Source: a virus
Strand: one strand, 5' to 3'
DNA: 16,838 nt
UHGV virus genome: UHGV-1653291
Shown here: in pieces, positions 3,001-6,000 of the stretch
Layout: each line of letters opens with the position of its first letter
How positions within the stretch are numbered: position 1 is the first letter of the stretch
Made by a program: the position numbers

Positions 3001-6000
3001 TAAGCGTATTGTTATTCAGGAGCAGATGGAGAATGTATGGCGTCAGAGGAAGACGGCCAGAGAGATAAAGGCAAAACAGAAAGCAGCGGAGAGAGCTGCG
3101 CGTCTTGTTCGGGAAAAGGGAGAGGCCGAACTTCGTCATCAAATCACCAGAGAGGTTAGTCAGGAATTTGCTGATGGCATGTATCCTGGTGCTGACCTTG
3201 CATATTTACGATCCCTCGTTGAGCAGCGTTATAACAGGTTAAGAAAGACCTGGAAATCACTCCAACATTAACCCACCTGAATGATGAATCCGGTTTTACC
3301 GGAGGATTATCTACGTCGCAATAAAATATCTGTTCAAAAAACAATCTAAATTAATTTTCTCTAAACCTGAACACAGCAAAAATATCGCCTTTACAGGCAT
3401 CGGCTAATAAAGTTATCCACAGTTCTGATATGTATATGCAAATGGTTTTTTATAATAGATGCACTAAACAAATAAATGCAAAATCACTTTCTTTTATTAA
3501 GACTTTCTTTATTTAACTTACACAGGCTTTGCCTGTGAATATGTTCGCCCTTGCAGCGAGCTAAAGCTCGCGCCGGTTCGAGTCGCTACGCTCAAATATA
3601 CCTCCTCCGGCACTTGCCGGAGGCATGGAGCAGCCTGATCATCCTTTTCGAAACGGCACGTTTCGAACTATACAAAATCAATTTATATAAGGCCGAAATA
3701 AGGCCTACGGCCGGGCTTTGCAGGAGGAAGGGGCGAGCCTTATCAATAAACGTCGATAAATACGCACACAGTAGCCATCAGAACGCGATAAAATGTAAGA
3801 AACATCATTTCCTATTAGACATAGAAAACTTGTCTTATACGCAATGTAGTAAATTTCTATTGCCACATAGGAAAAGATTTCCTACCATCGTAGATATAAT
3901 AAATGGAGATGGTTATGGATAAAGATACTGTTTTAAAAATGTTGAATCCGGCTTGTTTAAAAAAAGCGGATGAATGGGAATCTCCTACATGTGGAGAAGT
4001 TCGGGCAGTCATTGGCCTGACCGGAATGAGCGGCTCGCAGTTAGCCAAAAAACTAGGCTTAAAAGATAGTCGCAATGTTCGCAACTGGCAGATGTTAAAG
4101 GAGTCCACATCCAGATCCAGCATTCCGTATGCAGCCTGGGCGCTGCTGTGTTACTTCGCTGGGTTAGGGTTAATCTTCATTGATAACAAAACAGATGTTT
4201 GAAACATGCAAATATGAGGTTTGTTATGGAACTTGTACGCAAAACACGCAAAGAGTTCTTGGACCTGTATCGCATGGGAGCTTTCACTTGTGTTGTGGCT
4301 ACCCAGGACGAAGTGACAAAAAGCTGGCGGCTTTTTGCTCTCAATAAAAAAGGGATTGCCGTTTTCATTGAAAAAGCCCGTGGTGGTATCCGCGAATGGG
4401 CGGGATTGAATTATGTGGCTGATTTTTGCGCAGCTATGGGGATTCGTCGCTGGGAAGTCCATATGCCAGGAGTAAAGTCACAAAAATAGGGCTTTCGCGT
4501 CGAAAATGAGGCGAAACTGAAAACGAGATTTCATTAACAAATAAGCAACATAAAAAACGGTGGAAAACGCCCAGGAAAACATGATCTTTTGAGCGGATTT
4601 TTTAGATCCGACAATGAACGGTGATCCGGTGGTGCCGATAACGTCCATTATGTTAAATGGCCCCGTTTTTCTTGAAATTATAACCCACAGGTTATATAGT
4701 TAGTGATATAAACTACAGGTTATAGGATTGAGCATGTGGACGGTACTTTTTAGCCAGCGATTTGACGACTGGCTAAATGAGCAAGAAGACGCTCTTCAGG
4801 AAAAGGTTTTGGCTGATTTGAAAAAGCTACAGGTTTACGGACCTGAGTTACCCAGGCCATATGCCGATACCGTAAAAGGTTCTCGGTACAAAAATATGAA
4901 AGAGCTTCGCGTTCAGTTTTCTGGCCGTCCGATAAGAGCCTTTTATGCGTTCGATCCGATTCGCCGGGCTATCGTTCTTTGTGCAGGAGACAAAAGTAAC
5001 GATAAGCGGTTTTATAAAAAACTGGTGCGTATAGCTGAGGATGAGTTTGCAGCACATCTGAACACACTGGAGAGCAAGTAATGAGAACATTAGATGAGGT
5101 GATTGCCAGCCGTTCACCGGAAAGCCAGGCGCGAATTAAAGAAATGGCAGATGAGATGATTCTTGAGGTCGGCTTGCAGATGATGCGTGAAGAACTCCAG
5201 TTATCACAAAAGCAGGTTGCTGAGGCGATGGGTATAAGCCAGCCAGCAGTAACAAAGCTGGAGCAGCGCGGAAATGATTTAAAGCTGGCGACATTAAAGC
5301 GTTACGTTGAAGCTATGGGAGGCAAATTAAGCCTGGATGTTGAGCTTCCCACAGGAAAACGAATAGCGTTTAACATCTGATCAGAACGAATGATAAGCCC
5401 CTGTTGCAAAGGGGCTTTTTTGTGCTCATGGAATTATATAATTATAGATTTATATAAAAAGTGCTTTACAGGTGGGAAAATATTTCCTAGTGTTATACCC
5501 GAAACCGAGCGATACCCGCCCTGGTTAAACCGGAGATAACCCGATGAAAGTACAAGACCGTGAAGTAGTAAAAAACCTCCTGCAATACCTGACCTCAAAA
5601 AACCTGACGGGCAGCGTTGAGTACCGTGAAGCGTTAAAACATTTCAACGTCACTACGGTTTATCGTTGGGAAAACAAACATTCTGAAAGACCGTATGTGG
5701 TGGATGTTTTTGCGCCTGATATTGAGTGCGGTTTTGAGCGCCATTCATTCAAAAAGAAACATTCCGCTGATGTTTTTTGTGAGGTTGTATGTGCGGCAGG
5801 AGATGATGAGTGATGCGTATTTCCTTCAAACGTGCGACTGAGCAGCAACGCAAAGAGTTCCTGGCTGATGATGTTGCGGCCGTTTATGACCTCATGAAAG
5901 AGGTTGTGGAATCAGGAAACTACACGGCGGCAAAGATGCTTAAACTGCAATTCTTGCTGGGCGACCTGAAATACAAATCCGAAGTTGTCGCCGGACGACG

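Follow-up and report, generated by a model that had tools for sequence, protein, structure and literature searches.

Selected hairpins and candidate host-primase start signals beside the IncFII-type origin of an Escherichia coli phage-plasmid

Replication origins followed by a signal for priming on single-stranded DNA (ssDNA) are a kind of system known since the late 1980s. The complementary-strand origin of phages G4 and alpha3 is the prototype of a signal that is primed by primase alone, phiX174-type primosome assembly sites (n'-pas) are found near the origins of R1/R100 and of ColE1-type plasmids, and the single-strand initiation (ssi) sites of RSF1010 require a plasmid-encoded primase. The RSF1010 ssi sites have been described as hairpins of ~40 nt (PMC8567376). 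For plasmid R1, two ter sites have been placed between the minimal oriR and the start of the leading strand, whose synthesis runs away from repA (PMC10331603). Here, a stretch of 16,838 nt from the virus genome UHGV-1653291 (the window; all coordinates are its own unless another replicon is named) is compared with these systems. The window is part of a ~48-kb Escherichia coli phage-plasmid and includes, downstream of repA, the vegetative origin of an IncFII-family RepA replicon. Beside this origin lie an array of hairpins whose base pairing is under selection and two short motifs resembling primase start sites, and we hold, with slightly better than even confidence, that the region is a set of single-strand priming signals for the host primase, a compact variant of the IncFII 'G site' arrangement. 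Membership of the 'G site' class would be a matter of mechanism, suggested by layout, orientation and short motifs, and not of demonstrated homology.

The initiator gene repA (2291-3271, plus strand) encodes a product whose residues 53-319 match the Pfam family IncFII_repA (PF02387, E = 1.3e-43), and its RefSeq relatives are annotated as 'plasmid replication initiator RepA'. The repA stop (3271) is separated by 142 nt, the R100 equivalent being 176 nt, from TTATCCACA (3413-3421, plus strand), the sole exact DnaA box (TTATNCACA) in the window, which forms the left edge of the origin and is found in the same place in relatives. The adjoining segment (3422-3520) is the presumed RepA-binding and unwinding region, a role assigned by analogy with R1 oriR. 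The GC content is 20-24% over 3425-3524 compared with 56-60% over 3525-3650; three ATGCA(A/C) repeats are found at about 3438, 3460 and 3477 and the direct repeats ACTTTCTTTTATTAA and ACTTTCTTTATTTAA at 3486-3516, these repeats being conserved in relatives. An inverted DnaA-box-like site, ATATTCACA (3534-3542, minus strand), which is overlapped by the right arm of the first hairpin, is a perfect TGTGGATAA in the relatives L009, L143 and L007; two boxes in inverted orientation thus flank the repeats and the AT-rich core. The order of DnaA box and AT-rich region is common to the window, R100 and ~27 diverged relatives. A first-pass annotation made from the sequence had recognized the exact DnaA box with its IncFII-like placing, the AT-rich unwinding stretch and an IncFII-type origin, and all three were borne out by the present analysis.

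The AT-rich region gives way directly to four perfect inverted repeats located within 156 nt: hairpin 1 (3521-3537, or to 3542 with the box-like site; CACAGGC-TTT-GCCTGTG, 7 bp, 3-nt loop), hairpin 2 (3556-3571; 7 bp, 2-nt loop), hairpin 3 (3604-3623, minus strand; CCTCCGGCA-CT-TGCCGGAGG, 9 bp, 2-nt loop) and hairpin 4 (3647-3667; TTCGAAACG-GCA-CGTTTCGAA, 9 bp, 3-nt loop), the last being present in the window sub-family only. Ten such repeats exist in the whole window and the background expectation is 0.09 per 156 nt; when the 156-nt region was shuffled 5000 times no shuffle reached four repeats, the maximum being two. Folded as ssDNA, the segment 3515-3720 gave z-scores of -4.8 (minus strand) and -4.5 (plus strand), a stability that none of 200 shuffles attained. 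Three perfect dyads had been described earlier, about 130 bp past the AT-rich segment, with stems of 7-9 bp and spacers of 2-3 nt. These stems and spacers are those of hairpins 2, 3 and 4, but the count is four and the hairpins start at the AT-rich end; a spacing of ~135 bp is the one between the DnaA box and hairpin 2. The additional GGCC dyads reported at 3691-3712 are present as 4-bp stems accompanied by a direct repeat, ATAAGGCC, in two copies; they are weak, specific to the sub-family and conserved without covariation in L155 and L002, and this part of the region is not significantly structured (z = 0.05).

Hairpins 1, 2 and 3 persist in 27 origins although the number of distinct arm sequences reaches 21, 14 and 13, respectively, and hairpin 3 keeps its structure in R100 and R64 too. 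The left arm of hairpin 1 covaries in relatives with the variable part of its right arm, while hairpin 4 has two independent compensatory variants, GCGAAAAG/CTTTTCGC in L007 and ACAAAACG/CGTTTTGT in L152. For hairpin 2, five of the seven pairs have changed on both sides (19 cells), and none of 500 shuffles reached the covariation score; slid registers collapse, no G-U cell is present among 118, and the stem variants include GAGCT, GGAC, GACGT, GGCC, AAGC, GAAC, GACC, GGGC and GGCGC, among others. Since all four hairpins persist in diverged relatives via compensatory changes, their base pairing is selected, and the earlier view that such sequence-unrelated dyads reflect selection for structure and not the site of one protein is upheld by both the folding of the two strands and the covariation among homologues. 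As to the strand that folds, imperfect stems of hairpin 3 always have a plus-strand A.C mismatch, equivalent to a minus-strand G.T wobble, and for this hairpin 27 of 31 sequences fold more stably as the minus strand; strand bias is absent for hairpin 2. The relatives are not independent, so the preference for the minus strand is a lean and not a proof. A coding role was considered and rejected: the open reading frame (ORF) at 3551-3922 has no Pfam match, and relatives tolerate gaps of irregular length. Between hairpins 2 and 3, the motif TCGCTACGCTCAAA (3583-3597) is kept in the window and pKPC_UVA01-type sub-families, not in classical IncFII plasmids.

Hairpin 2 is embedded in a conserved block (3546-3582, minus strand), CGCCCTTGCAGCG-[hairpin 2]-CGCGCCGGTTCGA, which is a candidate compact primase start signal. 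In its core, CCCTTGCAGCG-stem-CGCGCCGGTTCG, the flanks are invariant and the stem changes by paired substitutions; read on the minus strand, the hairpin is followed by CTGCAAGGGC (3556-3547), with a CTG at 3555-3553. The block is carried by ~2,387 PLSDB plasmids, and distant BLAST searches showed ~35-50 nt around hairpin 2 to be shared by over 2,000 plasmids whose backbones are unrelated. Carriers include Klebsiella IncFII plasmids, Yersinia pestis pCD1, pKPC_UVA01 and plasmids of Serratia, Pantoea, Erwinia and Citrobacter, and further diverged, phage-plasmid-like relatives were found in IMG/VR; a scan of genome contigs with a loose pattern added four genuine loci out of 120 (L025, L032, L059 and L090). 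In nearly every locus examined, an IncFII-family repA of unchanged relative orientation precedes the block by 270-400 nt. Three loci (L132, L135 and L137) show no repA in their incomplete gene table, and origin-type sequence flanks the block in L135 and L137. In these two, which are Shigella and Citrobacter plasmids, the block and its origin-like surroundings (~1230-1400) are found between integrase and sensor-kinase genes, and may be a remnant origin or reflect a gap in the PLSDB gene table. The region of the block is unannotated in nearly all listed records, bearing a hypothetical protein alone in a few, and no published function for it was found. A dispersed repeat was ruled out, as the 48.5-kb element has a single copy. 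The CAG of the block is kept in 16 of 17 homologues. Its other flank, CGCCGGTTCGG, resembles CGCCGGGCTTCGG of the R100-type site, a likeness of short sequences that is only suggestive. A block-like hairpin, GCGACCGGAACGGTCGCGCC, was also seen in the conjugative leading region of R100 (L006, 2988-3007), a stretch known for its single-strand initiation signals; the match is not significant (E = 0.28).

The second motif, GGGCTTTGCAGGAGGAAGGGGCGAGCCTTATCAA (3713-3748, minus strand), is the more similar to known primer starts. On the minus strand it reads CTGCAAAGCC (3723-3714, with the CTG at 3723-3721), an exact 10-mer of G4 (3996-4005) that spans the annotated G4 primer start, namely the T of the CTG in GTCCCTACTGCAAAGCC. 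The alpha3 counterpart is CTTCCCTCCTGCTAAGCCC, and in the window CTGCAAAGCC is preceded, as in alpha3, by CCTTCCTC, a pyrimidine-rich run before the CTG; a hand alignment of CCTTCC-TCCTGCAAAGCCC with the CCTTCCCTCCTGCTAAGCCC of alpha3 matches at ~18 of 20 nt. The block motif shares eight of ten positions with the G4 10-mer. The pattern CTGCAARGSC, which was derived after seeing the data, the G4 10-mer being independent of it, occurs twice in the 16.8 kb, at 3547-3556 and 3714-3723, both on the minus strand, against 0.14 expected. All sub-families retain the motif at 3713-3748, and within the window sub-family the GCAGG of this far site does not vary. Relative to repA, neither CAG motif changes its orientation among the loci examined, and both CTGs lie on the template for a leading strand that would run away from repA. 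The single-strand initiation signals suggested by the first-pass annotation would accordingly be represented by two CTGCAA(A/G)G motifs on the leading-strand template, to which a priming activity may be attributed from their sequence; the interval 3413-3710 delimited there ends just short of the best primase-start motif (3713-3748).

Set beside the phage prototypes, the layout is also comparable: on the template, hairpins 2, 3 and 4 all fall inside the ~115 nt located 5' to the CTGCAAG of the block, an arrangement and scale like those of stem-loops I-III of G4. The hairpin sequences are nevertheless unrelated to those of G4 and alpha3, and the window is a duplex plasmid origin and not a single-stranded phage genome. 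The phiX174-type n'-pas and the RSF1010 ssiA/ssiB sites resemble the array as hairpin-based single-strand initiation signals by plasmid origins. They differ from it in that AAGCGG is absent from the window region, and in that the RSF1010 sites depend on a plasmid primase, whereas no primase, and no helicase, appears in the gene table of the 48.5-kb relative of the window element.

The closest described systems are R1/R100/NR1 and ColIb-P9/R64, with which the window shares an IncFII_repA initiator and, very likely, an antisense-type RNA in the leader; R100 has, in addition, the DnaA box ~140-180 nt past repA, then repeats and an AT-rich region, and counterparts of hairpins 1 and 3. An alignment of R100 with nine classical IncFII-type origins revealed a shared post-origin region of ~500 bp, with hairpin 1, the block, hairpin 3, a ter-like site (TTAGTTACAACA) and a CCGGCC hairpin, followed by an inverted ter-like site (ATGTTGTAACTA), a very conserved segment of ~95 nt, GCTT(T/A)GCAGGG, CCTATCA and two conserved hairpins. 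R100 has this full order except for the block, of which ~55 bp are cleanly absent, and the IncI1 plasmid R64 combines a degenerate block with an R100-like distal part. The ter sites are reported to precede the R1 leading-strand start, which places that start at GCTT(T/A)GCAGGG, ~360 bp beyond the 188-bp oriR. This motif, situated on the right-hand side of the two ter-like sites, is conserved in R100, R64, pCD1 and Klebsiella IncFII plasmids. Its position agrees with that of the R1/R100 G site, which reportedly lies ~380-400 bp past oriR. Another R100 candidate for the G-site start, CAGTACCGG at 45431, was discarded, since its CAG is not conserved in relatives whereas the GCAGGG at R100 45396 is. 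The window motif at 3713-3748 aligns with the conserved GCTTTGCAGGG of the IncFII/IncI1 post-origin region, right of the ter-like sites, and carries GCTT(T/A)GCAGG on the same strand as the motif of the R100/R64 leading-strand start region; as part of the priming interpretation, and with the same slight preponderance of confidence, it is taken as the counterpart of the R1/R100/ColIb 'G site'.

No ter sites were found near the window origin, which is also devoid of the 95-nt segment and of the two G-site hairpins of R100, and the distance from the origin to the far site is ~170 nt in the window compared with ~360-400 nt; conversely, the window has the 37-nt block and R100 has none. The two sites are distributed in a complementary way: R100 represents one arrangement, a full downstream site with two hairpins and no block, and the window sub-family another, a block with hairpins and a downstream site without them, while most IncFII plasmids have both the block and the full downstream site. 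The Klebsiella IncFII, pCD1 and pKPC_UVA01-type plasmids share with the window identical CCCTTGCAGCG/CGCGCCGGTTCG flanks and a covarying stem at the same position and orientation, but the classical IncFII carriers of the block differ in having ter sites and a complete R100-type G site as well.

A mechanism can be proposed in which RepA, together with DnaA at 3413-3421 and perhaps also at the weak inverted box (3534-3542), would open the AT-rich stretch 3425-3520. Host DnaB would be loaded on the plus strand and would unwind rightwards, away from repA, exposing the minus strand in single-stranded form and without a helicase-bound primase of its own. Hairpins 2, 3 and 4, and perhaps hairpin 1, would fold on the exposed minus strand and stay free of the ssDNA-binding protein SSB, and the host primase DnaG would start the leading strand at a minus-strand 5'-CTG-3', either at 3555-3553, which abuts hairpin 2, at 3723-3721, within CTGCAAAGCC, or at both. 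The primer would begin with pppAG and run rightwards. The direction of unwinding, the folding in vivo, the recognition by primase and the CTG that is used are all points that we infer. A bolder version, in which the host primase starts at the block, a compact signal bordering directly on the unwound region, and does so as the main leading-strand start in most IncFII-family replicons, R1/R100 being an exception by loss, is put forward tentatively and is more doubtful than the general proposal.

Several observations weigh against the priming interpretation. In one of the 17 block homologues TAG stands in place of CAG, and the block CTG, which abuts hairpin 2, overlaps the stem base, whereas that of G4 and alpha3 begins 3 nt beyond the stem. 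The hairpins near the far site lie on its 3' side, which is the wrong one, and a hairpin 5' of the CTG is not significant (z = 0.05). The hairpin 1 variants of the window sub-family show G.T on the plus strand, opposite to hairpin 3. A covariance model of the block found no match in R100, G4 or alpha3 and, in R64, scored 7 bits (E = 2.3) at the block-like site; BLAST of R100 45036-45700 against the window gave no meaningful similarity, and BLAST of the G4 origin retrieved G4-clade phages only. In the absence of covariance-model or BLAST homology, the likeness to proven G sites therefore rests on short motifs and is partly post hoc. In addition, the block of classical IncFII plasmids lies left of the ter sites, and a start there fits the published R1 picture, with its start beyond them, poorly.

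The alternative that survives best confines priming to 3713-3748 and assigns the array and the block to the mechanics of the origin, as cruciforms that relieve superhelical stress, as a boundary to unwinding or as elements that place DnaA, RepA or DnaB. Such a role would suit the overlap of hairpin 1 with the DnaA-box-like site, whose match to the box is perfect in relatives, and the block directly adjoins the equivalent of the minimal origin, without which block R100 replicates; the lack of strand bias and of G-T pairs in hairpin 2 is likewise what is expected if both strands or a duplex symmetry matter. It is nonetheless unlikely, because stems of 7-9 bp with loops of 2-3 nt extrude poorly as cruciforms, hairpin 3 leans to the minus strand, and the block, with its fixed orientation and its asymmetric flanks that do not vary, has the marks of a signal specific to both strand and direction.

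If the hairpins were instead PriA-dependent primosome assembly sites of the n'-pas type, loading DnaB and primase or serving replication restart, their selection as ssDNA structures beside an origin would be explained, and AAGCGG, the n'-site consensus, is present in hairpin 3 of R100, pKPC_UVA01 and Pantoea pDSJ05. In the window, however, neither AAGCGG nor CCGCTT occurs within 3500-3760, and the CTGCAA(A/G)G motifs point to DnaG. Hairpin 2 moreover has invariant flanks of 11-12 nt, for which we know of no precedent among PriA sites, and this explanation is considered quite unlikely.

The third alternative, a structured RNA formed by read-through of the repA mRNA, by a minus-strand transcript into the origin or by a small RNA, draws on the fact that covariation alone cannot separate RNA from ssDNA, the G.T-compatible changes on the minus strand suiting a minus-strand RNA equally well. 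With Rfam 15, no family matched in 3500-3800 even at E <= 5, and none reached its gathering score in the window; hairpin 2 is devoid of G-U pairs, and between 3200 and 4000 neither strand has a promoter-like site directed into the region, the sole one (3860-3888) pointing away. The earlier remark that no T-run follows the hairpins holds for the plus strand, where no intrinsic terminator, in the sense of a GC-rich hairpin with a T-run, was detected; on the minus strand AGGTATATTT follows hairpin 3, which the scan flagged as the single, weakly terminator-like match, but this T-tail is unconserved in relatives. An RNA, which had been offered as an alternative to priming signals, thus finds no Rfam, promoter or terminator support and is very improbable. 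Least probable of all are duplex sites bound by a dimeric protein, for instance RepA, a host factor or a phage regulator, which the perfect palindromes, their short spacers and the invariant flanks of hairpin 2 might suggest, but which are excluded for the stems given that the four palindromes are unrelated in sequence and each varies freely yet stays complementary, as a sequence-reading protein would not allow.

The element that carries this origin was identified through its relatives. The segment 3250-3900 shares 95-99.8% identity with 59 plasmids of the E. coli group, which are mostly 47-50 kb (~48 kb) long and all typed as non-mobilizable, one being from E. coli ATCC 25922; it also matches three Yersinia myoviruses. 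The matching records have tail, baseplate, capsid, terminase and lysis genes and repA as the single replication gene, and the element is therefore a phage-plasmid; the pSLy3 phage-plasmid group was ruled out as its identity, since pSLy3 belongs to the ~100-kb SSU5 supergroup. The window lacks ~16.2 kb of the ATCC 25922 phage-plasmid, comprising regulators, ParA, recombination and lysis genes, and the deletion junction (5427-5548) lies within a ~120-bp repeat that has three copies in the full element; it therefore seems to come from a deleted derivative of ~32 kb, comparable to the 32,182-bp NZ_CP024829 and probably defective as a phage. The tail-fibre and tail-fibre-assembly genes (1-2077) have no megablast match in the ATCC 25922 relative, which has at the equivalent position an invertible tail-fibre segment with a recombinase, so the window has a different host-range cassette. 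Three separate ORFs with ParB N-terminal (ParB/Srx) domains were noted upstream of the terminase gene (7418-11297), one of them fused to a methyltransferase domain.

Around the replication gene, the minus strand of 2295-2410 would give a strongly structured RNA (z = -8.6) with a long stem-loop and a perfect intrinsic terminator, AAGCCCGCAGAT-TTAT-CTGCGGGCTT followed by TTTTG. This is very likely a CopA/Inc-type antisense RNA controlling repA, although the Rfam search returned sub-threshold terminator-type matches only, with no CopA match reaching the threshold. The annotated repA start (ATG 2291) overlaps the gene for this antisense RNA, the Pfam match does not start until residue 53, and the Salmonella homologue has 277 amino acids; translation of repA probably begins at ATG 2423, and a leader peptide may lie in front of it. 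On the other side of the origin, the inverted repeats ATCATTTCCTAT/ATAGGAAAAGAT and TAGGAAA-AGA-TTTCCTA (3804-3884) overlap the promoter-like site at 3860-3888, upstream of the ORF 3903-4202, and look like an operator.

IncFII-family replicons underlie a large part of the antibiotic resistance found in Klebsiella and E. coli, and the virulence plasmid of Yersinia belongs to them too; the model of their replication has been derived almost entirely from R1 and R100. The block at the edge of the origin is sharply conserved, selected for its structure and unannotated; it is present in ~2,400 plasmids and a phage-plasmid family and is missing from R100. Should it not be a priming site, it would still be an unexplained conserved element of these origins. 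If it is a primase start site, the start of the leading strand would be relocated for most of the family and the block would offer a small target for studies of copy number and plasmid curing; if it is the main start, the textbook start ~400 bp downstream would rest on the exceptional R1/R100. For the phage-plasmid, these signals would mean that a phage whose complete relative has no listed primase or helicase can depend on host priming via a plasmid-type origin.

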